NCBI GenBank assembly: GCA_963777505.1
Contig: CAVZQN010000004.1
Location: 1,632,001 to 1,696,000 of the forward strand
From: an uncultured bacterium
Lineage (GTDB): Bacteria; Acidobacteriota; HRBIN11; JAKEFK01
DNA length: 64,000 nt
Reading direction: 5' to 3'
Shown here: positions 3,844-64,000 of the stretch, one piece after another
Numbering within the stretch: the first letter of the stretch is position 1
Layout of the letters: the number at the start of each line of letters is the position of its first letter
Made by a program: the position numbers and the translations under genes
The notes under the pieces: model-generated
The model's database searches: none
Seen by the model: the letters and a program-made list of their open reading frames with translations, nothing else
What the model was told of the DNA's origin: nothing

Positions 3844-4695
3844 ATGATGAGAAACCGTCTCTTTCATGATGCGCGCGACTTTCAAATTCTTTTTTTATTT
3901 ACCTTCCTGACACTAGGAATATTTGAGCGGGATTGGACTCTTCGACCCATACTGATGGCGACGATTATAGTGTCCTCAGTCACCGTTCAATGGATTTGCG
4001 ATCGTTTTTTCTCTTCTCCCAAGCCCTCGATTCGCAGCGCCTTGATCACGGCGATTAGCTTGTGCGCACTTCTTCGAGCCGGCTCAATTCTAACAATGAT
4101 CATTGCCGGAGCAGCGTCCATCTTGAGTAAATTTCTTTTTCGTTACCGCGGAAAACATTTCTTTAACCCATCTAATTTTGGAATCATTCTTGTTTTGTTG
4201 CTCACGTCTGATGCCTGGGTATCGCCAGGGCAATGGGGGAACGAGGTTTGGCTTGTGCTTTTGTTTTTCGCAACCGGTGGCATGGTGGTTAGCAAAGTCG
4301 GACGTTGGGACACGACAGGTGCATTTTTAGGCGGTTATATATTGCTTGAGTTTGCCCGCAATCAATGGCTCGGATGGACACCCGATGTTTTTGTTCACAA
4401 AATGATGAGCGGCTCGCTGCTTCTGTTTTCATTTTTCATGATCACAGATCCGCGTGCGATTCCTGATCGAAGAATTGCAAGAATACTCTGGTCTCTTTGT
4501 GTTGCAGTCCTTACGTATGTTCTCCGGAATCATTATTTCCTTCCGACAGCTCCGTTTTGGGCATTATTTGTGCTGTCACCATTTACGATCGTTTTCGATC
4601 GGATATTTCCAGCCAAGCGATTTGAATGGAGTGCCAAAGAAAGCTCTGTTGTAAATCCATTAATCGCAAAGACACAAAGGGAGGTCTTGGTATGA
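3844..4695 (+). CDS. Stand-alone RnfD/NqrB-family membrane protein
   Basis: Polytopic membrane protein with SALITAISL..LL, SKFLF....KHFFNPSNFG and FFMITDP motifs typical of the NqrB/RnfD fold. No other rnf/nqr genes are in the window. Confidence 0.75.
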   Translation: MMRNRLFHDARDFQILFLFTFLTLGIFERDWTLRPILMATIIVSSVTVQWICDRFFSSPKPSIRSALITAISLCALLRAGSILTMIIAGAASILSKFLFRYRGKHFFNPSNFGIILVLLLTSDAWVSPGQWGNEVWLVLLFFATGGMVVSKVGRWDTTGAFLGGYILLEFARNQWLGWTPDVFVHKMMSGSLLLFSFFMITDPRAIPDRRIARILWSLCVAVLTYVLRNHYFLPTAPFWALFVLSPFTIVFDRIFPAKRFEWSAKESSVVNPLIAKTQREVLV

Positions 4696-6003
4696 TGCGG
4701 ATTTTATTAGCTTTTGTATTTTCATTGCCTTTCATTTCATCTGCCTATGGATTTTGCGGATTTTTTGTGGCCAAGGCAGACACGAAATTATTCAACAAGG
4801 CTTCAAAGGTTGTGCTTGTTCGGGATGAAAATCGCACAGTCATTACAATGGCGAACGACTTTCAAGGAGAAGTAAAAGATTTTGCAATTGTAGTTCCGGT
4901 TCCAGTCGTTTTGAAAAAGGAACAAGTTCATATCGGTGATCCAAAAATCATTGAAAGGCTTGATGCATTCAGCGCACCGCGATTGGTCGAATACTTCGAT
5001 CGTGATCCATGCCAGCCTGTTTATCCTGAAAGTGTCGGTGCGGCAATGCCGCGGAAATCGGCAGTAGCTGACCGCAAGAAGAGATTCAACAGGCGTAACG
5101 ATTGAGGAGCAGTTTACTGTTGGCGAATACGACATCATGATTTTGAGTGCGACTGAATCTTCAGGACTTCAGACATGGCTGGAACAAAATGGATATAAAA
5201 TTCCGAAAACCGCAACTGAATTGCTTCAGCCTTATATCCGCAGTAACACAAAGTTTTTTGTAGCGAAAGTGAATCTTGCCGAATATGACAAACGAGGTCT
5301 AACGTATCTTCGTCCAATTCAAATGGCTTTTGAATCACCTAAATTTATGCTGCCGATCCGTTTGGGAATGGCAAATGCAGATGGCGTACAGGACCTGATT
5401 GTATTTGCATTATCTCGAGTGGGAAGAATTGAGGTTACCAATTACCGAACTGTAAATATTCCATCAGAATTCAATATTCCGATTTACGTTAAGAATGAAT
5501 TCGCCGATTTCTATAAAGCGATGTTTCAAAGAGCCTACGAAAAGGAAGGGAAGAATGCTGTGTTTGTTGAGTATGCATGGGACATGGCCTGGTGTGATCC
5601 ATGTGCAGATGATCCATTGAATCCTGAAGAGCTTCGAAAAGCGGGTGTTTTCTGGTTAGATCAGCAAAATCAAAACAATGTTTTTATTACTCGAATTCAT
5701 GCGCGTTATACACGTCCGCTATTTCCTGAGGATTTCGTATTTCAGGCAACTCCTAATCGTCAGAATTATCAAGGACGTTATATTTTGCAGCATCCATTCA
5801 AAGGGAAAATTGCGTGTGACCAGGGCCGTCAGTATTTAAGAGAAGTGGCTAAACGGCAGGAGAAAGAAGCACAACAACTGGCAAGTTATACAGGGTGGGA
5901 CATTAATGAAATTCGTAAGAAAATGGGACTTCAACAAGCTGTGAATAAACCCGAAGATGAGTCATGGTGGGATAAAATCTTTTCGGATGAAAAGGATGAC
6001 TAA
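4692..6003 (+). CDS. DUF2330-family secreted protein, copy 1 (single +1 frameshift near 5070-5085)
   Basis: ORFs 4626-5105 and 5137-6003 together align end-to-end with copy 2. The shifted frame reads RDSTGVTIEEQFTVGEYDI, matching DALGIKIEAQFTVGEYDI in copy 2. Confidence 0.8.
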
Positions 6004-6029
6004 CCGCAAAGACACAGAGGGAGGTTGAT

Positions 6030-7343
6030 ATGAAGCGGATTGTTCTAGCTTTTTTATTTACAACGATCATAGTTAGCTCTGCTTACGGCTTTTGCGGTTT
6101 TTTCGTAGCAAAGGCTGATACAAAGCTATTCAACAAGGCTTCGAAAGTTGTTTTAGCCCGTGATGGTGATCGCACTGTCCTTACAATGGCAAACGATTTT
6201 CAAGGTGAAGTCAAAGACTTTGCGATTGTCGTTCCTGTTCCTGTTGTATTGAAGAAGGAACAAGTTCACATCGGCGACCCGAAAATGATTGAACGTCTTG
6301 ATGCATTCAGTGCGCCGCGGCTCGTAGAATATTTTGATTCGGATCCGTGTATGCCTATTCCTCCGCAACCAGTTCCCATGCCTTCGGCTATGGCAGACAA
6401 AAGCGGCGCGAGCAGAGCGCGTGAAGATGCTCTTGGAATCAAGATTGAGGCTCAATTTACCGTTGGTGAATATGACATCATTATTTTGAGCGCGAAAGAA
6501 TCATCGGGGCTTCAAATTTGGCTCAATGAAAATGGCTACAAAATGCCACCAGGTGCAGCAGAACTTCTGCAGCCTTACATCCGAAGCAATACAAAGTTCT
6601 TCGTTGCGAAAGTGAATCTTGCCGAATATGACAAACGAGGTCTTACCTTTTTGCGGCCATTACAGATGGCATTCGAATCGCCTAAGTTTATGCTGCCGAT
6701 CCGTCTTGGAATGGCTAATGCAGATAAAGAACAAGATCTTGTCGTGTTTGCTTTATCACCGCAAGGAAGAACAGAGGTAACAAATTACAGAACTGTGAAT
6801 ATCCCTTCCAACGTCGAAATCCCCGTTTATGTAAAGAACGAATTTTCAGAATTCTATCGTTCAATGTTTCAGCGTGCCTATGAGAAAGAAGGCAGGAATG
6901 CTGTATTTGTGGAATATGCATGGGACATGGCATGGTGCGATCCATGTGCCGCCGATCCTTTAACACCTGAAGAACTGCGAAAAGCCGGTGTGTTCTGGGA
7001 AAGCGAGCAAGGTTCAAGCAATGTTTTTATCACGCGTATTCATGCGCGATATACGCGAGATAAATTTCCTGAGGATCTCGTATTTCAGACAACTCCGAAT
7101 CGAGAAAACTACCAGGGACGTTACATCATGCGGCATCCATTTAAAGGAAAAGTCGCCTGCGATCAGGGACGCCGGTACATGCGTGAACTTTCCACAAGAC
7201 AGGAAAAAGAAGCGCAAACACTTGCTTCACTGACAGGATGGGACATCAATGAGGTTAGAAAAAAGATGGGACTCAACCAGGCGAAAGGCAAACCTGAAGA
7301 TGAATCCTGGTGGGACAAAATTTTTGACGATGATGAACAGTAG
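6030..7343 (+). CDS. DUF2330-family secreted protein, copy 2 (intact)
   Basis: Signal peptide followed by FCGFFVAKADTKLFN, APRLVEYFD.DPC, VGEYDI, MLPIRLG, EYAWD..WCDPC, NYQGRYI.RHPF. RBS GGAGG upstream. Confidence 0.85.
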   Translation: MKRIVLAFLFTTIIVSSAYGFCGFFVAKADTKLFNKASKVVLARDGDRTVLTMANDFQGEVKDFAIVVPVPVVLKKEQVHIGDPKMIERLDAFSAPRLVEYFDSDPCMPIPPQPVPMPSAMADKSGASRAREDALGIKIEAQFTVGEYDIIILSAKESSGLQIWLNENGYKMPPGAAELLQPYIRSNTKFFVAKVNLAEYDKRGLTFLRPLQMAFESPKFMLPIRLGMANADKEQDLVVFALSPQGRTEVTNYRTVNIPSNVEIPVYVKNEFSEFYRSMFQRAYEKEGRNAVFVEYAWDMAWCDPCAADPLTPEELRKAGVFWESEQGSSNVFITRIHARYTRDKFPEDLVFQTTPNRENYQGRYIMRHPFKGKVACDQGRRYMRELSTRQEKEAQTLASLTGWDINEVRKKMGLNQAKGKPEDESWWDKIFDDDEQ

Positions 7344-7372
7344 ACTCTGCGACTCCGCGGTGAGAACAAAGA

Positions 7373-8167
7373 TTAACGAAGCCGCCGAAATTGTGTAGGA
7401 GTCATGCCAGTAAAGCGTTTGAATATTTTTGTAAAGTGACTTTGATCACAAAATCCAGACGCTAACGCAATCTCCGCAATTGAATTGTGTCCGTGAAGTA
7501 AATTGCAGGCATGCTCAACTCTTAAGCTCCGTACATATTCTGCAACTGTCGTTCCATAGAATTTGCGGAAGGATCTAGCCAGATGAACAGGATGGACACC
7601 CGCGCCTAAGGCTAATTGTTTAAAAGAAAAATTCTCCACGAAACAATCCTGAAGATGAGCTTTCGTATCCTTCAACCATCGCGGGATTTCTTTCGAAGCG
7701 ATACGGAATTCTCTCAATCCCGCAGCCATTAATTCCATTGAAAGTCCTTCAATAGCAAGGCTTGAAAGATTGTCCGGAAATTTGAACTCCTGAAATATCC
7801 GCATAGCAATCAAAGAAGGTTTGATGCCGCATGAATTCCACGGTTGTGCATCCGACATTTCAGAAATTCCTTGAAAGAATTCGATATTAAAACACCGGCT
7901 CGGATTGTCATGAACGCGATCGGAATGGAGGTCTCCCGGTGGGTGAAATATGACTGTCCCGGGTTTGCAATTCAATGTACGGTTACGTCCGATTTCAGAA
8001 AAAGTCCCTTGCAAGACATAGCAAAAAAACGGCAGCTCGTGAAAATGTTTGGGAATAACCTCCCGGGCATCGTATCGGGTTTCGCACAACTGGATTCCGC
8101 CCGTTTTATGCAGGCTGGTTATAGTTCCAAAGTACTGCCCTGAGCTTAAAACTCGATTCAATTCCAT
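7373..8167 (-). CDS. AraC-family transcriptional regulator (cupin + HTH)
   Basis: IPKHFHE cupin and C-terminal IAEIALASGFCDQSHFTKIFKRFTGMTP. Start placed at MELNRV. Divergent from the M1 peptidase. Confidence 0.9.
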   Translation of the reverse strand: MELNRVLSSGQYFGTITSLHKTGGIQLCETRYDAREVIPKHFHELPFFCYVLQGTFSEIGRNRTLNCKPGTVIFHPPGDLHSDRVHDNPSRCFNIEFFQGISEMSDAQPWNSCGIKPSLIAMRIFQEFKFPDNLSSLAIEGLSMELMAAGLREFRIASKEIPRWLKDTKAHLQDCFVENFSFKQLALGAGVHPVHLARSFRKFYGTTVAEYVRSLRVEHACNLLHGHNSIAEIALASGFCDQSHFTKIFKRFTGMTPTQFRRLR

Positions 8168-8252
8168 TGTTATTGGCTCACCAAAAAGTTTACAGCATAC
8201 AAGACAAAAACCCTTCCGATATTTAGACTGATTCTCCAGCAAAGAGGTTGGG

Positions 8253-10292
8253 ATGAAATACGTCATCATTGCTCTTTTAACTTTAAACGCCGCCACCGCT
8301 TCAGCAATTGAGATTTCTGAATTTCCTCATTATGAAATGGACGTTCATCTCACTCCTTCGGATCAAACGATCAGAACTGAAGGCATCATTACACTGCCAA
8401 AAAATAGTGAATCGATGACAGTTTTGAAGCTTGCGTTAAGTGAACAAATCGAGGATCTTCGCGTTGAAGTGTTATCGCCTCCTGATTGTGCAGGGGTCGC
8501 GATGTTTGAAAAAAAAGAAACCCGCCGCCCTTGGTCGCGCGATGGATGGGAAATAAATACCTGGCATTTTCAATTACCGAAACAATTACCGGCGGGGTCG
8601 CAATTAAAAGCAAAATTTTCTTATCAAGGTAAATTTACACAAAGCAGCTTTATATTTTCGCTTCAAAAAGACGTGATGTTCGGATCTGGCATCGGCACGG
8701 CATGGTACCCACAATTTGAAGAAGCTGATGCAACTACACGATTGAAAGGATTGCGATCTACAGGAAGACTTCAATTTCATGTGCCACCCGGACTGATTGT
8801 TCATTCAGCGGGAAAGTTGGTGAGTTCAGTTGAAAATCAAAAGCAAGGCAAATTTGAATTTGAAAATTCCAATCCTGTCTTTTTTTCATTTGCCGCTGCA
8901 AAGTTTTTCCATGTGATGGCACAGGGGAATCCTCCAGTCAGCGGCTATTTATTAAGGGAAAGGAAAAATATTAACGAATATTTGAACAAATGCTCACGCA
9001 TTATGAAAGTCCTTACAGATGAGTTTGGGCCCAGTCCGCTCAGTCCGGAATTTGCGATTGTGGAATTGCCATCAGAGCAATCGAATGATGCAGGGTTTGC
9101 TGGAGCCAGTCTGGATGGATTCATGCTTTCAACCACCGATTTTCTGGACCAGCCGTTCAACACTGCATATTACGGTCATGAAGTGGGTCATCAATGGTGG
9201 GGTGGGCTTGTTCGTGTCAACGGAACATCAGGAATCTGGATGTTGCAGGAAGGACTTGCCCAGTATGGCTCCTTGCGTGCGGTTGAAATCATTGAAGGCC
9301 CGGAAAAAGCAAAACAGTATCGCACTAAGTATTATCCGGGATACTTTGAATTTGAATCGTCCGGACCCGGTTATTTGCGTTTTGCTGCTGCAGGCTTAGA
9401 CAAACCACTGGCGCCATTGCCAAGAGAAGATCCAATCGCTCGAAGACTTTCAAATAGCAAAGGCATGTTTGTATGGGACATGCTTGCACAAGAAGCAGGC
9501 CGCGACCGTTTCAATGAAGCTTTAAGAAACATCGCTAGAAAATATGCTTACAAAAGGATTCAATGGGAAGAATTTCTTCAGGAAATTGAAAACAGCGCCG
9601 GACGTGATCTATCGACATTTTATAAACAATGGTTCGACCAAACGGGTGCTCCATCGTGGAAATCAAAATGGTGGATGAATGGCGAAAATCTTGAAGTTGA
9701 AATACGTCAGGATCTGCCGCATTTTCAAGTTAAAGTTCCTGTTGTGATGCGCGGAGAAGGCAAAGAAAAAAGAGAGACAATCGAACTCAAAGGTGAAATA
9801 TCTAAATTTACGATGCCAGTTTCATTCCAACCTGAGTCAGTTGAGATTGATCCCGATTTCACAGTTCTGCATTGGACTCCGCAACTCCGCGATGAAGCCA
9901 ATGCATTAATTCCATATACACGTGGATTCATGAAGTTCGTAGACGGCAACGCAAAAGAGGCAGAAGAAGAATTTCGTGCAGGGCTCAATCAGATTCCGGT
10001 TCCAGATCAACATGGTTTAGAGTTTTTACTTCGTTATGGTTGGAGCCAGGCCGCTCTGGATCAAGATCGTGTGGATGAATCCCTGAAGCAAATTCAAGCT
10101 GCTGTATCCTGCAAGACCCGTCGTCCTGAACTTCTTCCATGGGCGTATCTTCATCTTGCATTGGTTGCAAAAAAGATGGGGAATCAAGTTCTCTTAGAAG
10201 ACGCTGTGCAAAGTGTGAATGATGCCGACAAAGTTACAAAGACAGGCGCAGCAGAACAAGCCATTCAACTATTGAATCGCAAAGATCGCTAG
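8253..10292 (+). CDS. Secreted M1-family (gluzincin) aminopeptidase with C-terminal TPR-like region
   Basis: Signal peptide, HEVGHQWWG...WMLQEGLAQY zinc motif, FYKQWF, IDPDF. Confidence 0.85.
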   Translation: MKYVIIALLTLNAATASAIEISEFPHYEMDVHLTPSDQTIRTEGIITLPKNSESMTVLKLALSEQIEDLRVEVLSPPDCAGVAMFEKKETRRPWSRDGWEINTWHFQLPKQLPAGSQLKAKFSYQGKFTQSSFIFSLQKDVMFGSGIGTAWYPQFEEADATTRLKGLRSTGRLQFHVPPGLIVHSAGKLVSSVENQKQGKFEFENSNPVFFSFAAAKFFHVMAQGNPPVSGYLLRERKNINEYLNKCSRIMKVLTDEFGPSPLSPEFAIVELPSEQSNDAGFAGASLDGFMLSTTDFLDQPFNTAYYGHEVGHQWWGGLVRVNGTSGIWMLQEGLAQYGSLRAVEIIEGPEKAKQYRTKYYPGYFEFESSGPGYLRFAAAGLDKPLAPLPREDPIARRLSNSKGMFVWDMLAQEAGRDRFNEALRNIARKYAYKRIQWEEFLQEIENSAGRDLSTFYKQWFDQTGAPSWKSKWWMNGENLEVEIRQDLPHFQVKVPVVMRGEGKEKRETIELKGEISKFTMPVSFQPESVEIDPDFTVLHWTPQLRDEANALIPYTRGFMKFVDGNAKEAEEEFRAGLNQIPVPDQHGLEFLLRYGWSQAALDQDRVDESLKQIQAAVSCKTRRPELLPWAYLHLALVAKKMGNQVLLEDAVQSVNDADKVTKTGAAEQAIQLLNRKDR

Positions 10293-14891: not shown

Positions 14892-14972
14892 GCATTCTAG
14901 TATTTGAATCACACGAATCGCAGAGTATCAACGGATTCAATAAGACATCTCGGCGTACTCGGCGTTAAAAAA

Positions 14973-16137
14973 CTAACGCTGATCGCGTGCGACGAATTTC
15001 AGATCGATGGGGCCACTATATTCAGAAGCGGGTCTGATCAAACGATTTTCTGATTGTTGTTCCAAAACATGAGCAGTCCAACCTGCGATCCTGCCTGCAG
15101 CAAACAATGAAGAAAATTGATCAGGTGTGAGGCCGATACTTTGCAGAACAAGTGCGGTATAAAACTCAACATTAGTATTCAAATTCCTTCCTGGTTTGAC
15201 TTCATCTAATACGCGCAAAGCAGTTTTTTCTACACCAGTTGCCAGCTCAGTTAATTGGCGATCAATATTTGCGGATTTTCCAAGTTCTTCTACTGCAGCT
15301 TTCAGCACATTCGCGCGCGGATCACGCACTTTGTATACGCGATGTCCAAAGCCCATAATGCGTTTTCCTGCTGCGAGTTGTTCGCGTACCCAGGATTCTG
15401 CGCGATCCAAAGTCTTAATTTCCAGAAGCATATCCAGAACAGGGCCTGGTGCGCCTCCATGAAGTGGACCTTTCAAAGCTCCAATGGCGCCTGTAACAGC
15501 GGAATACATATCTGACTGTGTTGAAGCGATCACGCGTGCTGTAAAAGTGCTAGCATTCATTCCGTGATCGATCACGGTTGTCCAATATGTATCAAGCGCA
15601 TGAGCTGCTTCGGGGGCTGGAATTCGATCATTGAGCATGTAAAGGAAATTGGCTGCGCGATCCAATTCAGGTTTTGGTGGTACAGGATTTAAACCCCGTC
15701 TGAACCTGTCATGCGCAGCTACAATCACTGGAATTTGTGCTGTGAGACGTTTGGCTCGCTGTAGATTCGCTTCAATGGATTCATCATTCACCGCAGGATC
15801 ATTAATTGATAAAACACCTGCAGCCATTCTTAACGCATCCATTGATGGGGCGTTTCTGGCGGCTTGCAATAACATGATCGCCGCATCCGGAATCGTCCGT
15901 AGTTCTCTGAGCTCTTCACTCAGCGCTTCATATTCTGCCTGTGTCGGTAGTGAAGGATGTTTGCCCTGGGCTGCATTCCACAATATGTAAGCTACTTCTT
16001 CAAAAGTTGCTTTACCTGCAATCTCTTCCAGTGGATAGCCGCCAATGATGAGTTGTCCGGCTTGACCATCAACATGGCTAATCCGCGTGGTTGTTGCGAC
16101 TACGCCTTCCAGACCTTTCTTTGCTTGTGTACTTCAT
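14973..16137 (-). CDS. Citrate synthase/2-methylcitrate synthase family (1-nt insertion just after the start codon)
   Basis: KGLEGVV...ISHVDGQAG.L...GY is in frame upstream of the called ORF. DHGMNASTF, GPLHGGA, GFGHRVYK, NVEFY. ATG at 16137 is followed by an extra A. Confidence 0.9.
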
Positions 16138-19956: not shown

Positions 19957-21528
19957 ATGGCATATGACGCAATTGTAATTGGCGCAGGTCACAACGGTCT
20001 AATAACTGCCGCAAAATTGGGAAAAGCCGGGAAGAAGGTTCTGGTTTTGGAACGTCGTAATATAGTTGGCGGCGCGGCTGTGACGGAAGAAACTTATCCC
20101 GGATTTCGATATTCAACCTGCGCATATTCGCCTGGACTCTTTCAAGCATCCATAGCAGATGAACTCAATCTTGCAAAATATGGTTATTCAACGATTGAAT
20201 TTGATCCAGCTCTTGTTGCTCCATCGCCCGATGGCGAACCACTCTACTTCTGGAATGACCAGGCACGAACGATAGAAGGGATTGCTAAGAAGTCTGTTAA
20301 TGATAGCAAGCGCTATCCGGAATTTATTGCCGATATGGAACGGCTCGTTAAACATTTAAAGCCGCTTCTAACAAAATCTTTACCAGATCCTGCTACAGCA
20401 GGTGTCTCAGATCTCGGTGAATTGTTAGCACTTGCCTGGAAGCTAAAGGGATTACGGGAACGCGATATCCTGGAAATGCTTCGCGTTCTTCCAATGAGCA
20501 TTTTCGATTTGCTCAATCAATACTTCGAAAATCCTCATCTTAAAGGAGTTTTAGCTAGCGAAGGTATTTTTGGAAGCTTTTACGGTCCGCGCTCAGCAGG
20601 CTCTGTCTATGTGATGCTTTATTTGCGGATGGGAAGAGGAGATGGATCTAAGTTTGGCTGGCCATTTTGCAAGGGTGGAATCGGAACTCTGACGCAGGCG
20701 ATCGCTCAAGCTGCGAAAAGCCATGGCGTGGAGATCAGAACTGGAGTGGATGTTGCGCAAATTCAAATCAAAGATGGTGTTGCAACTGGAGTTGTGCTTT
20801 CAAATGGCGATGAAATTTCCAGCAATATTGTTGTTTCAAACGCAGATGCGAAGCGTACGTTTTTGAAACTTGTCAATCCGATTTATCTCGAACCGCATTT
20901 CCTGGTCAAAATACGTGCGATTAAATCTCGCGGCGTAAGTTGTAAAGTGAACTTTGCATTGGATGGGTATCCAAATTGGAAGGGCTTGAATTCAGGCCAA
21001 CAGCCTGCTGCACTTTGTATTGCGCCCGATATGGATTATCTTGAAAAAGCATTTGATGATGCAAAATACGGAAGACCGTCAAAAGCACCATTTCTGGATA
21101 TTGCAATTCCTACAGTCGCAGATTCAAGTATTGCTCCACAAGGAAAACATGTGATGTCGGTTTATGCCTTATTTGCTCCATATCATTTGAAAGAAGGCGA
21201 TTGGAACCAAAAAAGAGATGAATTCGGCGACACAGTTGTAAAAACTATTGAGACATATGCGCCAGGGTTCTCAAAATTGATTCTTCACAGACAGGTAGTT
21301 ACACCACTGGATCTTGAAACTGAATTTGGACTTACTGAAGGAAACATCAATCAGGGTGAAATTTCGCTGGATCAAATCATGTTCATGCGTCCGGTTTCAG
21401 GATATTCACGGTACAAAACGCCGATTGAAAAACTCTACCTCTGCGGTGCTGCAACTCATCCAGGCGGAGGCGTTACTGGAATTCCCGGGTCGCTTGCAGC
21501 CAGTCAAATCCTTTCCGATTGGAAGTAG
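19957..21528 (+). CDS. Phytoene dehydrogenase-like FAD oxidoreductase B (paralog of A)
   Basis: Same motif set as A: GAGHNGL, APQGKHVMS, EGNINQGE, LYLCGAATHPGGGVTGIPG. Confidence 0.9.
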   Translation: MAYDAIVIGAGHNGLITAAKLGKAGKKVLVLERRNIVGGAAVTEETYPGFRYSTCAYSPGLFQASIADELNLAKYGYSTIEFDPALVAPSPDGEPLYFWNDQARTIEGIAKKSVNDSKRYPEFIADMERLVKHLKPLLTKSLPDPATAGVSDLGELLALAWKLKGLRERDILEMLRVLPMSIFDLLNQYFENPHLKGVLASEGIFGSFYGPRSAGSVYVMLYLRMGRGDGSKFGWPFCKGGIGTLTQAIAQAAKSHGVEIRTGVDVAQIQIKDGVATGVVLSNGDEISSNIVVSNADAKRTFLKLVNPIYLEPHFLVKIRAIKSRGVSCKVNFALDGYPNWKGLNSGQQPAALCIAPDMDYLEKAFDDAKYGRPSKAPFLDIAIPTVADSSIAPQGKHVMSVYALFAPYHLKEGDWNQKRDEFGDTVVKTIETYAPGFSKLILHRQVVTPLDLETEFGLTEGNINQGEISLDQIMFMRPVSGYSRYKTPIEKLYLCGAATHPGGGVTGIPGSLAASQILSDWK

Positions 21529-21559
21529 CTCTTAACCTCAAAGACTCAAAGTTATCTGT

Positions 21560-25112: not shown

Positions 25113-25916
25113 TTATTTATTCTTTGCGACTCTGCGGTTAGTAATGATAAAAATTCCAAGACAGATTACGGTTATGATTCCTCCGAGCCTTACAAAGTTC
25201 AACGCATAAGCGCTGTATTTCCCTGTGCTCGGATCGTAATGAAAACAAAAAAGAAGTATTTGATCTCGAATTGAACCAATCTTGCCTTTTGAAGCTTCGA
25301 CTAGTGCAAGTCTGAGATCACGAGCAGAATATTCCACACCATAGAAGTAGTTCGAAATCTTTCCTTGCGGTGTTATCACCATGATGGCGGCACCATGCGC
25401 AAATTGTCCTGATTTTTGATCATAGTTGTAGCGGAACCCAACTGACTTTGTTAACTCAGCTATCGAATTGCGGTCGCCTGTCATGAAATGCCATCCTGAT
25501 TCTGTCCCAGGTCTCTTATATGCCGCGGCATACACGGCCTTCTTTTTAGAAGCGAGTTGTGGTGTTTCACTTGGATCAAAACTGACCGTCACAACTTCAA
25601 AATCGCGTCCCATTTCAAGATTCAGAACCTTTAACGATTTCAGCAGTCCATTCAATACTTCCGTACAAAGCATCGGGCATTCGTAATAAACAAGTGACAG
25701 GATCACAGGCTTTTCTGTTTTGAAGTATTCCTGTAACTTAACCTTCCTGCCATGCTCATCTTGAAACATTAAGTGCAAAGGAAGTTGTTCATTGATTCGT
25801 TGATCGATTCCAACGCTTTTCAATGCGGGCGGAAGGCCATTGTCGGCACTTGTTGAGAACGGCAATTGAGTCAGCAGGAAAAAAAACATTGCGATAAGAC
25901 GGTTATTGTTGATCAT
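25113..25916 (-). CDS. SCO1/SenC-family protein
   Basis: YYECPMLC, conserved His (FAHGA), LLFCFHYDP, C-terminal TM. Confidence 0.9.
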   Translation of the reverse strand: MINNNRLIAMFFFLLTQLPFSTSADNGLPPALKSVGIDQRINEQLPLHLMFQDEHGRKVKLQEYFKTEKPVILSLVYYECPMLCTEVLNGLLKSLKVLNLEMGRDFEVVTVSFDPSETPQLASKKKAVYAAAYKRPGTESGWHFMTGDRNSIAELTKSVGFRYNYDQKSGQFAHGAAIMVITPQGKISNYFYGVEYSARDLRLALVEASKGKIGSIRDQILLFCFHYDPSTGKYSAYALNFVRLGGIITVICLGIFIITNRRVAKNK

Positions 25917-28148: not shown

Positions 28149-28149
28149 T

Positions 28150-28686
28150 CTAATGGTCAACTTCGGATACAAATGTTGGTTGAAGCGCATCCAGAAAACG
28201 CATGGTATTGTCGCGATCAAATTTTGGATCACTCGATTCAATTAACAAAAAGAAACGATCACGTGAAGCAAGGGCAAAGCGCTTCACATTAAATACAGGA
28301 TGATATGGTTCCGGAAGTCCATTTAATGCAAGCATTCCAAGGACTGCAGTTAATGCGGCAACTAAAACTGTGGTCTCAAATGTAACCGGGATGAATGAAG
28401 GCCAGCTATTAAATGGCTTGCCTCCAACGTTGATTGGATATTCGACAACCGAAACCCAATAGCATAATGCATAACCACCGATGCATCCTATAATTCCACC
28501 AATCAAGACCAGTAATGGAAGCCGGTTTTTGTGAAATCCGATGGCTTCAGAAAGCGCTTCAATTGGAAATGGAGAGAATGCGTCCATCTTGCGGTAACCT
28601 TCTTCATGTGCTTTTCGTGCTGCGTCCACAAGACTATTGGCGTCTCCAAATTCTGCCATGAGGCCGTAAATGCCGCGTTCTTTCAT
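28150..28686 (-). CDS. actD: Alternative complex III subunit ActD (DUF3341)
   Basis: DAFSPFPI, YPINVGGKP..SWPSFIPVTFE, LP..YHPVF. Confidence 0.9.
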   Translation of the reverse strand: MKERGIYGLMAEFGDANSLVDAARKAHEEGYRKMDAFSPFPIEALSEAIGFHKNRLPLLVLIGGIIGCIGGYALCYWVSVVEYPINVGGKPFNSWPSFIPVTFETTVLVAALTAVLGMLALNGLPEPYHPVFNVKRFALASRDRFFLLIESSDPKFDRDNTMRFLDALQPTFVSEVDH

Positions 28687-40541: not shown

Positions 40542-40581
40542 GATGATTCTCCTTCATTGCGTCTTTGCGGTTGAGCTAAGA

Positions 40582-42614
40582 CTAAATCCCGTACTTGTCG
40601 GAATTCCAGCTAATTTTCAATTCGCTAGGTGGCGCCATATATCCGGCCATTGCGGAGGCAGCAACAACGGCAGGGCTTGCGAGATATCCTTCGCCTCCGA
40701 CACCCATACGGTTTTGCCAATTCCGATTAAATGAAGTGATTGCACGCTGTCCGGCTTTCAAAGAATCGGGGCCTTGACCAAAACATGGACCACACCACGA
40801 ATCTCGAATTTGTCCGCCAACAGAACGGAACACTTCTGCGATTGATTCGCCTCCCAGGCGTGGATCGGATACTTCAATCGCTTTTTTTACGCCTCCGGAC
40901 CCTGGGAAAATGACAAGATCGCGTGCAGTCTTGTTTAATCCCGCTCGTCTTGCTGCATGAATTACAAAAGCGGCTTGTAATAGATCATCGTAACTGCCAT
41001 TTGTACAAGAACCAATGTAAGCCTTATCAAATGGAAGTTTTTCTTGCGCAACTTCCTCCGCTGGAAACGCATTGCCAGGGCTGTAGGGTTTGGCGATCAT
41101 CGGAACAACTTCGGTAAGATCAATCATTTCATCGATCTCATAAAAAGCTTCTGCGCCAGGCTGCAAAGGAGGGTAGGGAAGTTGGGTCAATCCTTTTTGG
41201 CGATACCACTCGTAGGTTAATTCGTCCGGCGCAAAAATGCCGTTTTGTGCTTCTCCTTCTGCCATCATATTTGCAATTGTGTTTCTGTACGCGATTGGCA
41301 ATTGTTTTTCGCGATCAACAAATTCAACTGACATTCCTTGAGATTGTGCGGCACCCCAACGTTCTAATAATTTCAAAACAATATCTTTACCACTGACCCA
41401 TGCTTGTAGTTTTCCTGAAAAGATGACACGTCGCGCGCGCGCAAGTGTGAAGTAGACATATCCAGTTGACCAGCCGAATCCAAGAGTTGTGGACCCAACT
41501 CCAAATCCTACTGCTCCATACGCTCCATATGCGCGGCTGTGTGAATCTGCTCCCGGGATGAATTGTCCAGGATAAACAAGTCCTTGTTCTGGAAAATAAA
41601 AATGGAAAATGCCGTCTCCGGGATCGGCATAATATGGCTTTTTGATATTTTGAGCTTTTGCAAACTCTTTTGAAATTGCAGTTTGCTTATCATCTTCCGC
41701 TTTTCCAGTAAATACGAAATGATCGTTTGCAATCGCAGCTTGTCGTGGATAAATCGCATGACCGCCTGTGATTTGATTAAACGTATGAATTGAAAAGGGA
41801 CCGGTACCATCGGAAGCGGGCAATAAATCCGCATAAACGCGCAATGTAGCGCCTGGTTTAACTTCGGCATCTTTATCGACACGATGTGCCCAGACGATCT
41901 GTTCGGTTGTTGTCATTTTGCGCGCTGTATCAGCGTCAGGCCAAATAATTTCGGGCTTGCGTTTAACGGAACCTGGAAATTCTCTTCGGCCTAATGCGAA
42001 GATTCCACCGGTCCGACGGATCTCATCTTCTTTTGGTGTTAGCGGAAGTGGATCATAGCTTTTTCCGCGAGTTTCATTCGTCAGTTTACGGCTGGATGGT
42101 ATCAAACAAAAATTCATCTCCGTCTTGCGCATCTTCTACAGCTTCCGGAGATTGAATTACATGTAATCCAAGATTGAATGCATTCCGGCGAAAAATGTCG
42201 CCCATATTGTTGGAGCAAATGATGACCATTTCAAGTCCGACTTCTTCGGCGACCGCTTTGAGCCCTGCGGGGCTCATTTCGCGTGATGATCCAATTCCAA
42301 AACGTTCGCCTGCAATCACAAAAGTTTCTCCACGGTGTACATGCTCACGAAAGTTGGGCATTAAATACTTGAATGCTCCCTCTTTCCATTTTTCATCAAG
42401 TGAATCCAGGCTTTCTGAAACACAAAATTTGGAAGGAGTAATTTGATCGGTGTCGATGGCGTCTAGTTTTTTACCGGGCCTTTTCGGATCCCAAAAAATG
42501 AGAGCCTTCCCGCGAATCGTACGAGCTTCTGTAGAGGCGCTTCCAGTCTTCAGACTGTATCAAAGCGTCGACTTGTTTTCCGGGCTTTAGCCGGGCGGGT
42601 AATATTATATGCAT
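40582..42614 (-). CDS. Aconitase-family hydratase with N-terminal LeuD-like swivel domain fused to a LeuC-like Fe-S domain (indels near 42530 and 42100)
   Basis: AIDTDQITP, FGIGSSRE, IFRRNAFNLGL followed by DH, GADSH, IGSCTNG, CGPCFG, NRNWQNRMG, LASP. Frames join at FD-PSSRKLTN. Confidence 0.8.
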
Positions 42615-43485: not shown

Positions 43486-43543
43486 ACGTTCAAGTATAAG
43501 CTCCGGTCTCTGCGGTTCAAAATAAAGAAGATACAATGATGGA

Positions 43544-44539: not shown

Positions 44540-45871
44540 ATGTCTACAACCCTGGCTCGATCGTTGCGAGCAACGGAATATTTCACACTTGCTTTTGGAA
44601 CCATGGTTGGTGTGGGCTGGCTGATCTTGATCGATGATTGGCTGTCGCGAGGCGGACCTGGCGGCGCGATGCTCGGTTTTTTTGTGGGAGGTCTCGCTCT
44701 TGTTCCGGTCGCATATGTTTATGGCCGTTTTGTTCAAGAAATACCGGGTGCTGCGAGTGAGTTCGCGTATACCTCTACTGTTTTTCCCCGCGCAGGATTC
44801 GTTACAGCATGGATGATGACACTTGCTTACCTGATTGTGTGTCCCTGGGAAGCAGTAGCGATCGGCAAACTCGTTTCATATTTGATTCCATCAGTAAAAA
44901 CGATTGAGTTGTATAGAGTCGGACAATTTTCCGTCTATTTGCCCGCTTTGATTTTAGGGCTTGCGATCACGGCTCTCATCATTTTCTTAAATTATCGCGG
45001 CATTCGATTGAGCGCGCGTTTCTTGAATTACACAACTTTCGCACTACTCGCGTTATTTGGCGTATTTACAGTTGCTGGCTTTTCTAAAATGGAGACTCAA
45101 AATTTGCAGCCATTCTTTGCGCAAGAGTCGTCAAGCCCGTTAATGGGTGCGCTCATCTCAACGATCATGATTTTGCAAATCGTACCTTACTTTCTTACGG
45201 GCTTTGAGTCTGTACCAAAAGCTTCCGAAGAAGCGAATGAAGATTTTGCTCCGCGAGGTTTTTCAAAAGCTATTTATTTAGGTTTGGCTGCGGGTGTTTT
45301 GTTTTATGTTCTTGTGATCTGTGTTGTTAGCGGATTGACTCCCTGGCAGACATTAACTCAAGAACGATACGGAACGGCTGTGGCGTTTAATCGTGCGTTT
45401 GATTCGCCTTTTTTCGGACAAATCATTGTAATCGCTGCAATATTTTCACTGTTGAAAATATTCAATGCCAATTTTCTTGTTGCATCCCGGTTGGTTTATG
45501 CGCTTGGAAGAAGCGGTGTAATCCCAAAACAATTAGGAGCGATTCACAGCGTCTTTCAATCCCCCAAAAATGCAGTGATATTCTGCGGCGTCATTACGAT
45601 TACTGGAGCTTTCTTTGGTGATTCGATTTTGATTCCTGTAACGGAAGTTGGTTCGATGTGCTCAGCATTTGGATGGATGATGACCTGTCTTGCGTTTGCA
45701 CTTTTGAAACGAAATGTAATTGCCTGGATCGGGACGGCTGTTGCTTTTTCCTTTTTGATGTTGAAGTTGATTCCATCTATACCGGGAAGTTTTGGCAAAT
45801 GGGAGTACGTGGCCCTGTTTGGATGGATCGGTTTGGGATTTATATTGAACCGCAGAGGCGCAAAGAGTTAA
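44540..45871 (+). CDS. APC-family amino acid permease
   Basis: FGTMVGVGW, GFES....SEE, ASRLVYALGR.G..P....IH....P. About 12 TM helices. Confidence 0.9.
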   Translation: MSTTLARSLRATEYFTLAFGTMVGVGWLILIDDWLSRGGPGGAMLGFFVGGLALVPVAYVYGRFVQEIPGAASEFAYTSTVFPRAGFVTAWMMTLAYLIVCPWEAVAIGKLVSYLIPSVKTIELYRVGQFSVYLPALILGLAITALIIFLNYRGIRLSARFLNYTTFALLALFGVFTVAGFSKMETQNLQPFFAQESSSPLMGALISTIMILQIVPYFLTGFESVPKASEEANEDFAPRGFSKAIYLGLAAGVLFYVLVICVVSGLTPWQTLTQERYGTAVAFNRAFDSPFFGQIIVIAAIFSLLKIFNANFLVASRLVYALGRSGVIPKQLGAIHSVFQSPKNAVIFCGVITITGAFFGDSILIPVTEVGSMCSAFGWMMTCLAFALLKRNVIAWIGTAVAFSFLMLKLIPSIPGSFGKWEYVALFGWIGLGFILNRRGAKS

Positions 45872-46890
45872 TCGAAGACGCCGGCGCCGAGAAAATTTTT
45901 CCGCAAGTATTCAACCGTATCAAATAATGTTTCGCCAGGATCCCGTGGCACAAATCCGATCTCACGTTGGGCTTTCGAGGAATCGACATACCAGAAATAT
46001 CGTGACATCTCCATGCTTACAGGTTCAACAGGTGGTTCTTTGCCGATCCCATCAAATATGCCTTCAATTATCTTTGATGTAACGCTGTGGAGTTTCTTGT
46101 GAACTTTGAGTCGCGGCGCTTTTACTTTGGTAATTCTTTCAAGGTGCCCGAAAAATCGCTCCAGAGGCCAATTTGGGCCGCCTAACAAATAACGTTCTCC
46201 CGGCTTTCCGCGTTGCATTGCATTGTAAAATGCGGCCGCTGTATCGCGAACATCGACAAAATTAATTCCACCTGATGGAATTGCTGGAATATCTCCGGCT
46301 ATAAACTTCAATACATCCTGCGTTGAGCTGAGTCGATCATCGCCCGGACCTAAAAGCAAACTTGGATTCAGAATCACAAGCTCTACTTGATCGCCGCATG
46401 ATCGGATCGCGGTTCTTTCTTGATACCACTTGCTTGAGTAATACGGAAATTTTGTAATGATCTCTACCGGAACAGGCCACGATTCGTCCGGATTTTCGAA
46501 GCCGTCTTCAGTAATAGCGATCGTACCGCTGCTCGATGCAAGAACAATGCGTCGTACACCTGACGCTTTCGCGGCTTCGCATAACATCCGTGTTCCATCC
46601 ACATGGATTGCATGCATATCACGTGGATCGTCTTTGCTTCGAGAGACTTTGCCGGCGAGATGGTAAATCTGTTGAATATTTTCAACGGCGACTCGAAGAA
46701 TGTCAGGCGAGGTAATGGAACCTTCAATGATTTCAACACCACTTTCATCCAGCCACTTAGGTGGATTTGTTGTTAATACCCTCACATTCTTTTCTTTTTT
46801 GAAACGCAAATAGTCCAGTAGATGTTTTCCAAGAAAACCAGTTCCGCCGGTTACAAGAATCTTATCGCTGGAATGTTTTGAGGCTTTCAT
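45868..46890 (-). CDS. Extended SDR (NAD-dependent epimerase/dehydratase), ElbE-like
   Basis: VTGGTGFLG, HLAG, YYSSK, NP..LLGPGD, VDVRD.A, GERYLLG. Directly downstream of the ElbD-like gene. Confidence 0.85.
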   Translation of the reverse strand: MKASKHSSDKILVTGGTGFLGKHLLDYLRFKKEKNVRVLTTNPPKWLDESGVEIIEGSITSPDILRVAVENIQQIYHLAGKVSRSKDDPRDMHAIHVDGTRMLCEAAKASGVRRIVLASSSGTIAITEDGFENPDESWPVPVEIITKFPYYSSKWYQERTAIRSCGDQVELVILNPSLLLGPGDDRLSSTQDVLKFIAGDIPAIPSGGINFVDVRDTAAAFYNAMQRGKPGERYLLGGPNWPLERFFGHLERITKVKAPRLKVHKKLHSVTSKIIEGIFDGIGKEPPVEPVSMEMSRYFWYVDSSKAQREIGFVPRDPGETLFDTVEYLRKNFLGAGVFD

Positions 46891-46898
46891 TTGATGGT

Positions 46899-49800
46899 TC
46901 AATCACCAAGCGCTGAGGCCTTTTCATGAAGTTTAGGTTGGTTCTCTCGATTCCATTGATTTCGAACGGCTGTCAAATCCGGCACCGGTATTACACCATG
47001 CTTTAATTTGCGGACCATTTGTTCAACAACCAATGTAATCAAACGATAGGCCTCGTTACGCGGCATACCTTCCACGAATTTCTCAAGCGCTTCATGCGAT
47101 AAATAGGGCCCAATGATAGCTTTTACCTTTTTCTTTTTGGGAAGCTTTGATCCCTTTGGCATCGCATCATAAGTTCCACTAAGATGTATCGGCAAAATTC
47201 CACGTTTAGCGCGAAGCGCAAGGTAACCAAGGCTTGATTTGAATTCCGTAATCTGACCAGATGACGATCGCGTACCTTCCGGAAAAATCAGCAAATTAAA
47301 GCCTTTTTGTAGTGTTTGAACGGCGAGCTTTAAGGATTCGTGAATCGAACCTTCACGTTCCATCGGAATCAAATTCGTAAAATTTTCAAAGAAGGTTCGC
47401 TTTATTTTGTTGCTGAAAAAGTAATCTTTTGCAGCAAGCGCAGCCAGATTTTTTCCAGCATCCCCTAACGCTTTCTTGACAAGTCCTGTATCAAGATGTG
47501 AGCTGTGATTTGGAGCAACTATAAAATTTGTGTGAACGGGAATGTGTTGAGTTCCGCTGATTTCTGCTTTTAAGTATGAATCGTAAAAGACTTCATTCGC
47601 CCAATCCAGTGCAGCGCCGCCGGCTTCACCGATGATTCCAGGAAGGGATATTTCTTTTTCTTTCTGCGTTTCTTCTGCGATTGAGCGCTTTGCAACTGCA
47701 TGAGTTCGGGATGAAACGTGAAGGAAATCGGCAAGCTGTCTGACTGAAGTAATTGAACCAAGAGCTTCAAAAGATGGCAGCGTCCGGCCTGAATGTTCGA
47801 TTGCAGCGCCAAGCTCAGAATACATAAGACTGTCAAATCCAAGTTCATCGAATGTAGTATCACGGTGAATTTCTTCGATCGGTCTTCCACAAACAGAACT
47901 GATAATTTCTGTTAGTACCTGGAATTCGGAAGAAGCTGGCAGCTCAATCGGTGCAGCTGTGCCTTTCGCATGCAGGTCTTGAAGGATTCGGATCACCTCT
48001 CTGCGTTTTACTTTTCGAGTTCCGGTGCGCGGGAGATCCTCATCTTGAAATTCCAATGTGCTGACGCGTTTCCATACTGGAAGTCCCGAGGCGATGCGTC
48101 GAAAATGTTCTTCGATTCTTGTGCGCAGTTGAACGTGCGTCAGCGATTCATCATATGCATGGTCAGGGACAACAAGACACGCGATCCTTTCCCCGTTGTG
48201 ATCTGGCAAGCCAACAATACTCAGTTCTTTAATGTAAGGCGAATCGCGATACAAGTCTTCAATCTCATCCGGATAAATATTTTTACCACTTGGACCCAGA
48301 ATTAAATCTTTCGATCGTCCGACCAGGAATAAATTTCCATCTTCATCGATATAACCAAGATCACCGGTATGTAACCAGCCATCGATAATTGTTGAATTCG
48401 TGGCACTTTTGTTTTGATAATAGCCCGCCATGATATTTGGACCGCGCGCAATCACTTCACCGATCCCTTTTTCATTTGAATTGATGACTTTAATCTCAAC
48501 GCCAGGCAGGGCAGTTCCAACGCTTCCAATTTTTGGCTTTGACCCAGGGCGTGTGACTGAAAGAACAGGTGAACTTTCTGTAAGGCCATAGCCTTCATTC
48601 AAAGAAAATCCAAGGCCATAAAATGTTTCATAAGTCTTTTCAGAAAGTGCAGAACCGCCGCTGATTAAGAAACGGATCTTTCCACCAAGCCCATGATGAA
48701 CAGGGAAGAACAGGAATGGCCCAACATTCAATGAGGTTTTTTCGCGGACCCAATGGTTGATACTGATCAAAGATTTAACAAAACCCTCGAGCTTTTTAGA
48801 TTTATCTCCAAAACGATTTAAGATCCGCCGCTTCAATAGATCCCAAAGTGCCGGCACTCCAACAACCATCGTTACGTGACTATTTTTGAAAGCATCTGAA
48901 ATGGAATCGGATGTGAGTTCTTCCAGATATGTTATCTGCGAGCCGCGGCTGAAAGGCAGCAAAAATCCTGTAGAAAATTCAAACGTATGATGCAATGGCA
49001 GAATGCTAAGGAAGCCATCTTCGTGTGTAACATCATAAACTTTGAGCAACTGAGACATCATGCTGGTCAAATTCTTTTGGGTTAGCATGACACCTTTCGG
49101 ATTCCCGGTTGTACCCGAAGTAAATATTAAGGAGGCAATGGCGCCTGGTTTCGCTTTCGGCAATTGAGCAATTGCTTCATTTTCTTTTTCTTCATTATCC
49201 AGTTTAAAAATATCCTCAAATGTCCAAAGCTTAACTTCGAGATTTAAGTCTTGGAGCTTCTTCTCAAGTTTTGGATGTTTGCGGCGAATTTTTTCGCTAT
49301 GCACGAAGGCTTTCGCATTGCCGGCTCGCAACAGATTCACGATTTCATCCGTTGTGAGATCTTTGTCCATCGGAATACAAGTTGAACCAGCCCGGACGAC
49401 TCCCAAATAAGTGATTCCCCATTCGGGAGAGTTTTCGCCAATCAACGCAACATGATCCTCAGGTTTAATTTCGTGATTGTGCAAGAAGGCTGCAGCGCGA
49501 AGAACTAATTCGCGCAAATCACGGTACGTATATTCTTCAAGCTTGCCTTTGCGTTCCATCCGCATCGCAACGCGTTCTGCATGAAGCTTTGTAACCGAAT
49601 CGAATAATTCAGTAAGAGTTCGATATGTATAAACGCGCTTGGGTTTTGGCTTTCCGATTTCTTCCATTTTCGGAAATACCCATCGATTCAGACCAGGGAA
49701 GTGTACTTTTAACCAATAGTGATACCAGTCAAGCGTTTCAGGAGCCCAGGTTAAAATTCTGCGATCTTCTTCCGGTAGACGTTCAAAGAGAGCCCGAACG

Positions 49801-63029: not shown

Positions 63030-63036
63030 TTTCTTC

Positions 63037-63732
63037 TTACCTCAAATCCAATATTGGCCAATGACTAGAAACTGCTGTGCTCTTCAACCGAAAATCAGGA
63101 TGAACCGCTGTCGGGTGACCTACTACAGATAACATTGGTAAATCACTAATACTATCTGTATAGCAGTAACTGTCACTCAAACTCAAGCCCTCTTTTTCAG
63201 CATAAGAACGGATCCAGGAGGCTTTTGAAGCATTTGCCATGACCGGAGGCAGCAGTCTACCTGTTGCAAATCCGTCGACAAACTCAAGGCGGTTCGTGAT
63301 CCAATCGTCGATTTTCAGATGACGGGCAAGAGGCGCCACCGTTGTGTCGAGTGCCCCTGTTACTATGACCTGTCTTAAGCCCAGACTTCGCGACTTTTCA
63401 ATCAGATCGTAAGCGCCTGGATAGATCGAAGGCAGAATCACATCTTCAAATAATTCCTCGGATAGAAACCGGATCCTATCTTCGGATTCGCCTTTGTACA
63501 TCTTAAAAAATAATTCCTGAAAGGCGGTCCGGCTGTAGGCGTCCGTTGCGAGGAAGGCAGGGACTGCAGAAAAGACGCTGGCAGTTTTGCGGATACTCCG
63601 CAAAATACCTTGCTGATTGCGGGCTTGAAAGAACAAGACATGTACGAGATTCGTTTTTACGAGCGTGCCATCCAGGTCGTAAAATGCTGCAGCCGCCCGC
63701 TTTGACTTCGGTGCCCGTCTTGCACTCCTCAT
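63037..63732 (-). CDS. HAD-superfamily subfamily IB phosphatase
   Basis: [34 protein letters not shown]. Start at MRSARR (63732) after TATAAT. Confidence 0.88.
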
Positions 63733-63777
63733 AAACCGCCTATTATAAACCACAAAGCCTCTTCGTGCCTCTGCGGT

Positions 63778-64000
63778 TAAAAAGATTCTCTTCGCTTTGT
63801 AAATGCGCACCGATCGGTCCAATGATTTCGTGCGGGATGGAAATTCATGGAGGACATCATAGGTCCCGGGAATTTTGTTGAATAAGTCTTCAGTCACACA
63901 AACATATTCATAATTCTTGACGTTTTTGGGATTCATGAACTCACCATACGAAAGGTAACGTACATTGTAACGATCGCCGGGAATTGTTGGACCTGTTGGA
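63778..64000 (-). CDS. 3' end of an upstream gene (unknown, possibly a glycosyltransferase soluble domain), stop probably lost to a homopolymer indel
   Basis: Frame is open from the window edge: PTGPTIPGDRYNV...YDVLHEFP...VRIYKAKRIF. Removing one T from the T5 run gives TAA immediately followed by the 3'-end repeat. Confidence 0.5.

Follow-up and report, generated by a model that had tools for sequence, protein, structure and literature searches.

The stretch of DNA analysed here, referred to throughout as the window, comprises 64,000 nt (C4:1632001-1696000) of the Acidobacteriota genome under study, G000, a 5.23 Mb assembly of 14 contigs with 44% G+C that is 95.9% complete. Dispersed along it, mostly at or close to the stop codons of its genes, are copies of a short module that consists of a T-rich leader, AAC or CAC, and two 7-nt units of the form C-R-C-N-R-A-G with an 8-nt period. 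Copies were scored with a 25-nt position weight matrix (PWM; consensus TTTAACCGCAAAGACGCAAAG) that was iterated and refined on the whole genome and used with a main cut-off of 16 bits and reversed sequence as the control, and genes were called in G000 with a simple codon-usage model, giving 4336 genes that cover 88.8% of the genome. Ten window sites score at least 16 bits (4659, 5999, 7341(-), 21531, 25118(-), 28086, 28116(-), 40551(-), 45845 and 63757(-)). An earlier note, made from the letters of the window, had listed about 14 copies; most were confirmed, but 14907-14927 and 43501-43520 are degenerate, and the copy at 28086-28110(+) had been overlooked. Three others on its list (14949-14970, 37615-37636 and 37656-37675) are members of a sister subfamily with CGCCGAG units and a 9-nt period, which falls below PWM detection. 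The motif itself is real, since the 18-mer proposed in the note has four window matches at up to three mismatches against 0.03 expected. Taken as a whole, the observation in that note was partly confirmed and its interpretation partly supported.

Seven window copies are solitary arms next to or inside the ends of genes. The arm at 4659..4683 (+; PWM 23.9 bits) lies in sense orientation in the last codons of the open reading frame (ORF) 3844..4695, RnfD/NqrB-like by Pfam, where it is translated as LIAKTQRE and is followed by GGGAGG and the ATG of the next gene. The own TAA of the arm at 5999..6023 (+; 28.1 bits) is the stop codon of ORF 5137..6003 (DUF2330), and the rest of the arm occupies the spacer up to the Shine-Dalgarno site of 6030..7343; it is absent at the orthologous junction of G001, a sister species in the same genus. 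The 29-nt gap between the convergent genes 6030..7343(+) and 7373..8296(-), the latter of AraC type, is filled by the arm at 7341..7365 (-; 25.4 bits), which is antisense and 1 nt after the first stop, sense after the second, and again absent in G001. This part of the window (3844-7343) contains tandem DUF2330 paralogues, 5137..6003 and 6030..7343, with a related stretch upstream, and has the motif at each junction in G000; among the paralogue junctions of G001, one of three has a variant, ACCACAGAGGTCACAGAGG. Further along, the arm at 21531..21555 (+; 23.4 bits) begins 3 nt after the stop of the amine-oxidase-like (Pfam) ORF 19957..21528, in a convergent spacer where G001 has a hairpin form (gene 508). 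The arm at 25118..25142 (-; 29.6 bits) encodes the C-terminal tail TNRRVAKNK of the SCO1/SenC-like gene 25113..25916; this copy is sense, and the G001 orthologue has an antisense copy after its stop (gene 3091). That at 40551..40575 (-; 24.2 bits) separates two genes: the stop of 40582..42132(-), of the aconitase family, lies 9 nt before it, and AAGGAG and the start of 39177..40541 come next. It is absent in G001, where a GC-rich palindrome takes its place (gene 498). Finally, the arm at 45845..45869 (+; 29.2 bits) encodes the tail LNRRGAKS of the amino-acid permease 44540..45871 and is at the same time antisense, 1 nt past the stop of the convergent gene 45868..46902(-) (gene 1765). The three translated copies at 4659, 25118 and 45845 had been recognised as such in the earlier note; a fourth, FTAKKL in ActE, is doubtful because the cytochrome c domain begins at residue 122 of ORF 27552..28241 and the copy lies 12 nt past the stop of the upstream gene.

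The remaining window copies are paired, folded or degenerate. An imperfect hairpin at 28086..28140, in an alternative-complex-III gene cluster, is formed by 28086-28110(+) and 28116-28140(-) (PWM 16.3 and 22.6 bits; partners 27 nt apart) and lies 12 nt after the stop of 28150..28686(-); the region 28084-28142 folds weakly (-13 kcal/mol, z -1.15). The CGCCGAG-subfamily arm at 14949..14970(-), with its 9-nt period, is 3 nt after the stop of 14973..15983(-), and has a degenerate possible partner at 14907..14927(+), where the best PWM score for this gene end (gene 1196) is about 5 bits; the pair folds weakly (-14 kcal/mol, z -1.9). Between the convergent genes 36508..37614 and 37682..39148 is a strong hairpin, 37615..37675, with CGCCGAG/CGCAGAG arms and an AT-rich loop of 19 nt, and the region 37612-37680 folds at -29.6 kcal/mol (z -6.05; 0 of 200 shuffles equal it). 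Its left arm, 37615-37636, is the same 22-mer as 14949-14970, as had been noted, and occurs in 12 exact copies in the genome. Near the right end of the window, the arm at 63757..63781 (-; 27.5 bits) is part of a tight 10-bp hairpin with two G-U pairs (63745-63785(-): -14.2 kcal/mol, z -3.3). It lies within ORF 63037..63936, in an N-terminal extension of a protein whose HAD domain starts at residue 84. A single open frame, 63037-63999(-), enters from outside the window, crosses the motif and continues into this HAD-hydrolase gene; either the protein has an 83-residue N-terminal extension or the motif copy has joined two reading frames. At 43501..43520(-) there is one good unit and a degenerate second (<8 bits), away from any gene end, and a full copy could not be confirmed. 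As a general statement, the claim that copies do not form hairpins fails: 37612-37680 and 63745-63785(-) fold, and 28084-28142 is a weak hairpin. The solitary copies in the regions at 5996, 7340, 25110 and 40545 have no significant structure.

Across the G000 assembly the module is abundant and strict in design. The 8-mers ACCGCAGA and ACCGCAAA rank among the most over-represented, and alignment of all 721 CCGCARAG sites brought out the second unit 8 nt downstream as well as the T-rich leader. In the matrix the A, C, C, C, A and G positions are nearly invariant and the R and N positions free. The PWM scan at its main cut-off of 16 bits gave 700 sites, with 34 in the reversed control; at 20 bits the numbers were 597 and 6. 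Arrays have two units (n = 352; control 4) or three (n = 45; control 0), never four or more, and a leader with a single unit is at background (427 against 517 in the control). The dominant subfamily, CxCARAG, accounts for 247 arrays, 36 of which (15%) have a partner. As a separate observation, the most over-represented 8-mer genome-wide is the palindrome TAGTACTA (182 observed, 68.7 expected).

Of the 700 sites, 445 fall entirely in intergenic DNA, 120 overlap the end of a gene and 134 are contained in an ORF. Only 13 of the 700 are deep inside ORFs, for which reason a reading of the module as a DNA uptake sequence was rejected. The closeness to stop codons seen in the window is borne out strongly, with a median distance of 9-10.5 nt against 28-32 nt for uniform placement and none of 2000 simulations as low. 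The accompanying rule, that copies are sense to the gene they follow, fails genome-wide: relative to the closest gene end, 317 copies are sense and 383 antisense, co-oriented spacers hold 114 sense and 176 antisense copies, and at gene ends with a verified G001 orthologue the numbers are 26 and 26. The sense-only appearance is a feature of the window, several of whose copies lie between convergent genes, and not of the element. In convergent spacers a copy is found close to the stop codon of the gene on its own strand (median distance 9 nt, spacer 80 nt). Both orientations have their own precise registers. In the sense peak the TAA of the motif is the stop codon at 35 sites (plus 10 with a TGA variant one base earlier), with further copies 1-6 nt past the stop; counted by a same-strand criterion, the motif TAA is the stop codon in 49 cases. 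The antisense peak is sharp at 0, 1 and 2 nt past the stop (30, 33 and 36 sites). Replication-strand bias, as expected for single-strand transposition, was not found when judged by GC skew on five contigs.

Copies also reach into coding sequence from its end. Within the last 60 nt of ORFs there are 79, of which 52 are sense, giving tails that resemble TAKTQR-, NRKDAK- and PQSRK-, and 27 antisense, mostly giving ...SASLR followed by a stop within GGTGAA or GGTTAA; the window copies at 4659, 25118 and 45845 belong to this set. A different arrangement is seen in G001, in the orthologue of the gene downstream of G000 gene index 10, which appears to begin at an ATG immediately past the upstream stop and to read through a copy of the motif (MQPQKRK...). 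Were this the case, residues at the N-terminus could come from the module as well.

Most copies stand alone. With a partner defined as an inverted copy within 150 nt with up to two mismatches in a 10-mer, 502 of the 700 have none; with shuffled cores as the control, 61 of 700 obtain one. Inverted arms are a property of only some 20-28% of copies. G000 has 58 unique strong hairpins, and 67 pairs of copies converge within 200 nt, the paired copies forming hairpins that end TTAACC...GGTTAA. Over the 70 nt past stops, regions with solitary copies have mean folding energies of -10.8/-11.7 kcal/mol, controls -14.1 and paired sense copies -17.0. Where 28 hairpins in tandem spacers were compared on the transcribed strand, G-U exceeded A-C mismatches by 38 to 26 (hairpins 16 to 8), which is not significant (p 0.15). 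Six larger, gene-less composite hairpins of about 220 bp (C3:207356-207574, C4:194015-194234, C1:689947-690167, C1:96375-96597, C6:356759-356981 and C2:18604-18827) have outer arms of the CACGGAG motif form and inner arms made of a second long palindrome.

What is probably the complete form of the family is found around genes for GxxExxY proteins (PF13366). The earlier note had suggested that similar repeats flank such genes in other genomes, and this proved correct: G000 has three PF13366 genes, each enclosed by arms in inverted orientation that belong to the CACGGAG, CGCCGAG and CGCCAAG subfamilies, and 10 of 12 GxxExxY loci in relatives have inverted arms of such units, two of these short. 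As the note also said, there is no GxxExxY gene within the window. Among the 12 exact genome copies of the 22-mer 37615-37636 are both arms of the GxxExxY gene C3:576219-576569. Subfamilies with a resident GxxExxY gene are paired more often (54%, 33% and 28%) than CxCARAG (15%). Cassettes with arms exactly of the CxCARAG type are present in G021, and the five four-helix-bundle genes (PF05635) of G000 have arms made of other short words. An intact GxxExxY protein of 124 aa is encoded on C3 of G000. The G000 GxxExxY protein is a member of TIGR04256 (148.8 bits). E28, D68, E78 and K80 are invariant in 12 GxxExxY sequences, and the structure model is confident (pLDDT 93.5); in a Foldseek search it gave weak matches to the PD-(D/E)XK proteins Cas4 SSO0001, lambda exonuclease and the Holliday-junction resolvase Hjc (E 2e-3 to 2e-2), and a sequence search against solved structures gave nothing below E 0.39. 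No account of repeats flanking GxxExxY genes was found in the literature searched, supplementary files being outside that search.

The set of occupied sites differs between sister species. The comparison used 400 kb of G001 and 255 reciprocal-best orthologues with a median identity of 76.6%, and the orientation tallies at orthologous gene ends are our own counts. Occupied gene ends number 52 in G000 and 50 in G001, with 20 in common, leaving 32 of the 52 G000 sites without a counterpart; at the shared ends the orientation is the same in 13 and opposite in 7. At two junctions (genes 508 and 536) G001 has a hairpin and G000 a single arm. The direction of change can be read at one junction only, G000:C4:1710825. 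There the TAA directly abuts the ATG in G001, and G002, G004 and G005 have 2-8 nt, whereas G000 has 27 extra nt containing the motif, and G003 (L186) and G006 (L185) have about 62-63 nt of two other repeat families. By parsimony, this implies three independent insertions into one tiny stop/start junction. The G003 and G006 inserts comprise a GGAGCGCGGGC-type hairpin and a GTAG element resembling repetitive extragenic palindromic (REP) sequences, and both add AGGAG just before the start codon. For wider comparison, contig C22 of G002 (207,695 bases) has six orthologue triples in common with the G001 stretch, and a single metagenome scan for nearer relatives gave a best match at 73-75% protein identity.

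The distribution of the module was assessed with an exact 17-nt pattern in 31 genomes. It occurs 192 times in G000, 55 in G001, 138 in G002, 62 in G004, 48 in G007, 61 in G021 and 33 in G028, and is absent from 17 of the 31, the reversed control giving zero in all. All ten genomes with at least five copies carry PF13366, and the 16 genomes without PF13366 have 0-2 copies; as the genomes are related, this co-occurrence is a pattern over about six lineages and not a test. G021, from another family of the phylum, has near-identical copies, often at contig ends. In the sample from G002, G007 and G028, hairpin arms of three units prevail, and no more than 8 of the 32 copies are found 15 nt or less from the stop of an ORF of at least 100 aa. 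The abundance of solitary two-unit arms next to stop codons therefore seems to be particular to the genus of G000 and G001.

Several known kinds of repeat invite comparison. REPs and their hairpin-forming doublets (REPINs), with the associated tyrosine transposases (RAYTs), likewise comprise hundreds of short extragenic copies, as inverted doublets that form hairpins and as singlets (PMC3116915, PMC3337134), and Bertels and Rainey (2011, PMC3116915) describe singlets as remnants of REPIN doublets. Three more likenesses are a small gene of nuclease type enclosed by the repeat in inverted orientation, a match between repeat subfamilies and the flanks of particular genes, and a location near gene 3' ends (PMC3116915). 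The differences are that the unit here is a direct repeat of two 7-nt words and not a palindrome, that solitary copies have no significant fold, outnumber doublets and show no extra decay, and that the flanked gene is a PD-(D/E)XK GxxExxY gene and not a Y1 transposase. Neither of the two PF01797 (Y1_Tnp) genes in G000 is flanked by the motif on both sides, since one locus has one copy, to one side only, and the other has no copy at all, and their loci of 3.2-3.3 kb contain no GTAG REP-like copy. In E. coli, ribosomes stall at REPs that lie within some 15 nt of a stop codon. What defines GxxExxY hairpin cassettes, inverted arms of tandem 7-8 nt units with the same arm sequence around a GxxExxY gene (TIGR04256/PF13366), is found here, but some 500 of the 700 copies are partnerless two-unit arms at stops in both orientations, unlike in such cassettes. 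The heptamer repeats of Xanthomonas and Nostoc, as presented by Rehm et al. (2015, PMC4692102), are also short-period tandem repeats spread genome-wide, over-represented between co-oriented ORFs and mostly within 50 bp of an ORF end, stop-codon overlaps included. According to the same study they are G-rich, with 2-26 units of which four are preferred, and are read as quadruplex-forming (PMC4692102), whereas the present module has a fixed leader followed by two or three units, lacks G-runs and is tied to GxxExxY cassettes. Miniature inverted-repeat transposable elements share with it a non-autonomous, multi-copy, intergenic character, and the hairpin forms here have terminal inverted repeats ending TTAA; they differ in that no target-site duplication was found here, most copies are single arms of 20 nt and no cognate DDE transposase was identified. 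Intrinsic terminators are GC-rich hairpins followed by a T-run, whereas solitary copies are unstructured. The intervening sequences of 23S rRNA sit within a helix of the rRNA, and RNase III cuts them out of the RNA; the copies described here lie between protein genes or at their ends.

Together, these data are best read as insertional, probably mobile DNA, which fits better than an RNA signal. We consider it probable, though by a modest measure, that the solitary copies are arms of a dispersed-repeat family whose complete members are hairpin cassettes around GxxExxY genes, and that they represent selfish, probably mobile insertions at gene boundaries. The hairpin-cassette family is of a known kind; the solitary-arm population at stop codons is the new part. 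In the mechanism proposed, the module would be an arm of the family whose complete members enclose the small GxxExxY (PD-(D/E)XK) nuclease genes, the nuclease may recognise the paired units and drive their copying, and copies would be inserted in either orientation, gathering in the few bases on or just past a stop codon. Copies that land in the last codons would provide the gene with a new stop or its protein with a short tail at the C-terminus. The position at boundaries would presumably reflect the survival of insertions together with some targeting. The suggestion in the earlier note of a mobile-system footprint at stops thus fits much better than its other suggestion of an RNA signal, and both targeting of stops and survival of insertions could produce it. 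A bolder form of the same idea, which we put forward tentatively and with clearly less assurance, is a partnership like that of REP and RAYT in which a minimal PD-(D/E)XK GxxExxY nuclease, not a tyrosine transposase, copies short modules, and in which this genus has shifted from hairpin doublets to solitary 20-nt arms at the stop boundary of about one-sixth of its genes.

A number of results weigh against the selfish, mobile interpretation. The 20 shared gene ends exceed the 10.2 expected (Fisher p 3e-4), which could mean retention or function. Solitary arms are no more decayed than paired ones (pairwise identity 0.697 against 0.679; PWM mean 25.3 against 24.6), and all of 500 label shuffles gave a paired-minus-solitary difference in identity at or above the observed -0.018. 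The 3' flank of solitary copies has no TA or other target-site duplication, and the dominant CxCARAG subfamily has no cognate GxxExxY gene in the 95.9%-complete assembly. In spacers of at least 150 nt, copies within 6 nt of a stop number 23 of 76 (sense) and 11 of 69 (antisense), where 2.8 and 2.5 are expected, so insertion tolerance alone is insufficient. The stop peak is sharper than that of the GTAG REP-like family, TGA, which makes up 33% of stops genome-wide, is scarce among those that adjoin copies, at 17 of 117 (p 8e-6) and 15 of 97 (p 1e-4), and the conserved matrix positions resemble a protein-binding logo. Because of the equal conservation of solitary arms, the sharpness of the peak and the form of the logo, a selected gene-boundary element useful to the host is kept as a serious rival, even though we judge it rather unlikely. 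It would be a duplex-DNA site for a protein on two adjacent 8-bp boxes, acting as a roadblock or insulator, or have a role in translation termination or re-initiation. Conservation that is position-specific with an 8-nt period, the strict design of two to three units, and the occupation of some 16-20% of gene ends in both G000 and G001 despite turnover, with sharing above chance, are in keeping with such a function, as are the persistence of the stop peak in long spacers and the lack of enrichment of canonical hairpin-plus-T terminators in the window between 20001 and 40000 (23 against 20.9 expected). None of these 23 terminator-like sites coincides with a motif copy. A useful element is harder to reconcile with the patchiness of the module in the phylum, where 17 of 31 genomes lack it, and with its presence following a selfish-looking nuclease gene. 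It also sits uneasily with the lack of a counterpart in the sister species at 32 of 52 G000 sites, with the four relatives that do with a junction of 0-8 nt where G000 has the motif and two others have unrelated repeats, and with the few copies near stops in G002, G007 and G028.

Two further explanations carry less weight. The solitary arms could be dead halves of hairpin elements that have lost one arm, for which REP singlets derived from REPIN doublets (PMC3116915) provide a precedent. The junctions at genes 508 and 536, the more frequent pairing of subfamilies with a resident GxxExxY gene and the prevalence of three-unit hairpin arms in G002, G007 and G028 all suit this view, yet solitary arms are not more diverged than paired ones, and new sites exist in both sister species. 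Moreover, antisense solitary arms meet the stop with their inner, loop-side end, and arm loss therefore needs an exact deletion of arm and loop, all of which makes decay of this kind an improbable origin for the population. The least credible explanation, and a very remote one, is the one proposed in the earlier note, that sense-strand copies at the 3' ends of mRNAs act in the RNA as signals for protein binding, processing or stability. The mostly sense window copies, the proximity to same-strand stops in convergent spacers and the weak excess of G-U over A-C mismatches speak for it, but antisense copies are as common and as close to stops, outnumbering sense copies in tandem spacers, and the two orientations would give unrelated RNAs, which leaves the proposal unsupported. 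In addition, no Rfam family matches within the window, and regions past stops with solitary copies are less structured than controls. The interpretation as arms of a selfish, probably mobile cassette family is accordingly the one preferred.

About one gene end in six in G000 carries the module. Since its TAA serves as the stop codon in 49 cases and tails are translated in 79, gene ends, protein tails and possibly gene fusions are affected, and if the partnership like that of REP and RAYT is true, it would have rewritten the stop codons and C-terminal tails of roughly a hundred proteins. The GxxExxY proteins form a large family that has a conserved nuclease active site and for which no role is known. 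Through the module they are tied to a concrete DNA population that can be counted, and their function thereby becomes testable with oligonucleotides of 20-60 nt. The same partnership, if true, would also provide a function for this very large, uncharacterised family and explain dispersed short-period repeats in several phyla. The three unrelated repeat families found at one junction of 0-8 nt in different relatives show that small mobile DNA of different kinds lands or survives at the same gene boundaries in these bacteria.

Some minor features of these genomes deserve mention. Matches to a sigma-70-like promoter in the window between 20001 and 40000 number 18, against 35.5 in shuffles; with the terminator counts, this suggests that host promoter and terminator signals differ from the E. 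coli consensus. The GTAG REP-like palindromes (GTAG followed by GGGCGGGTCT-N-AGACCCGCCC) give 238 strand hits in G000, for example next to C4 gene index 1850, and none was seen in the window; this family too is found near stop codons, and its TAG is sometimes the stop. In the G001 stretch L089-L108 (genes 2510 and 3147), another short-period hairpin family, built of AACGTAA units, begins directly after stop codons.

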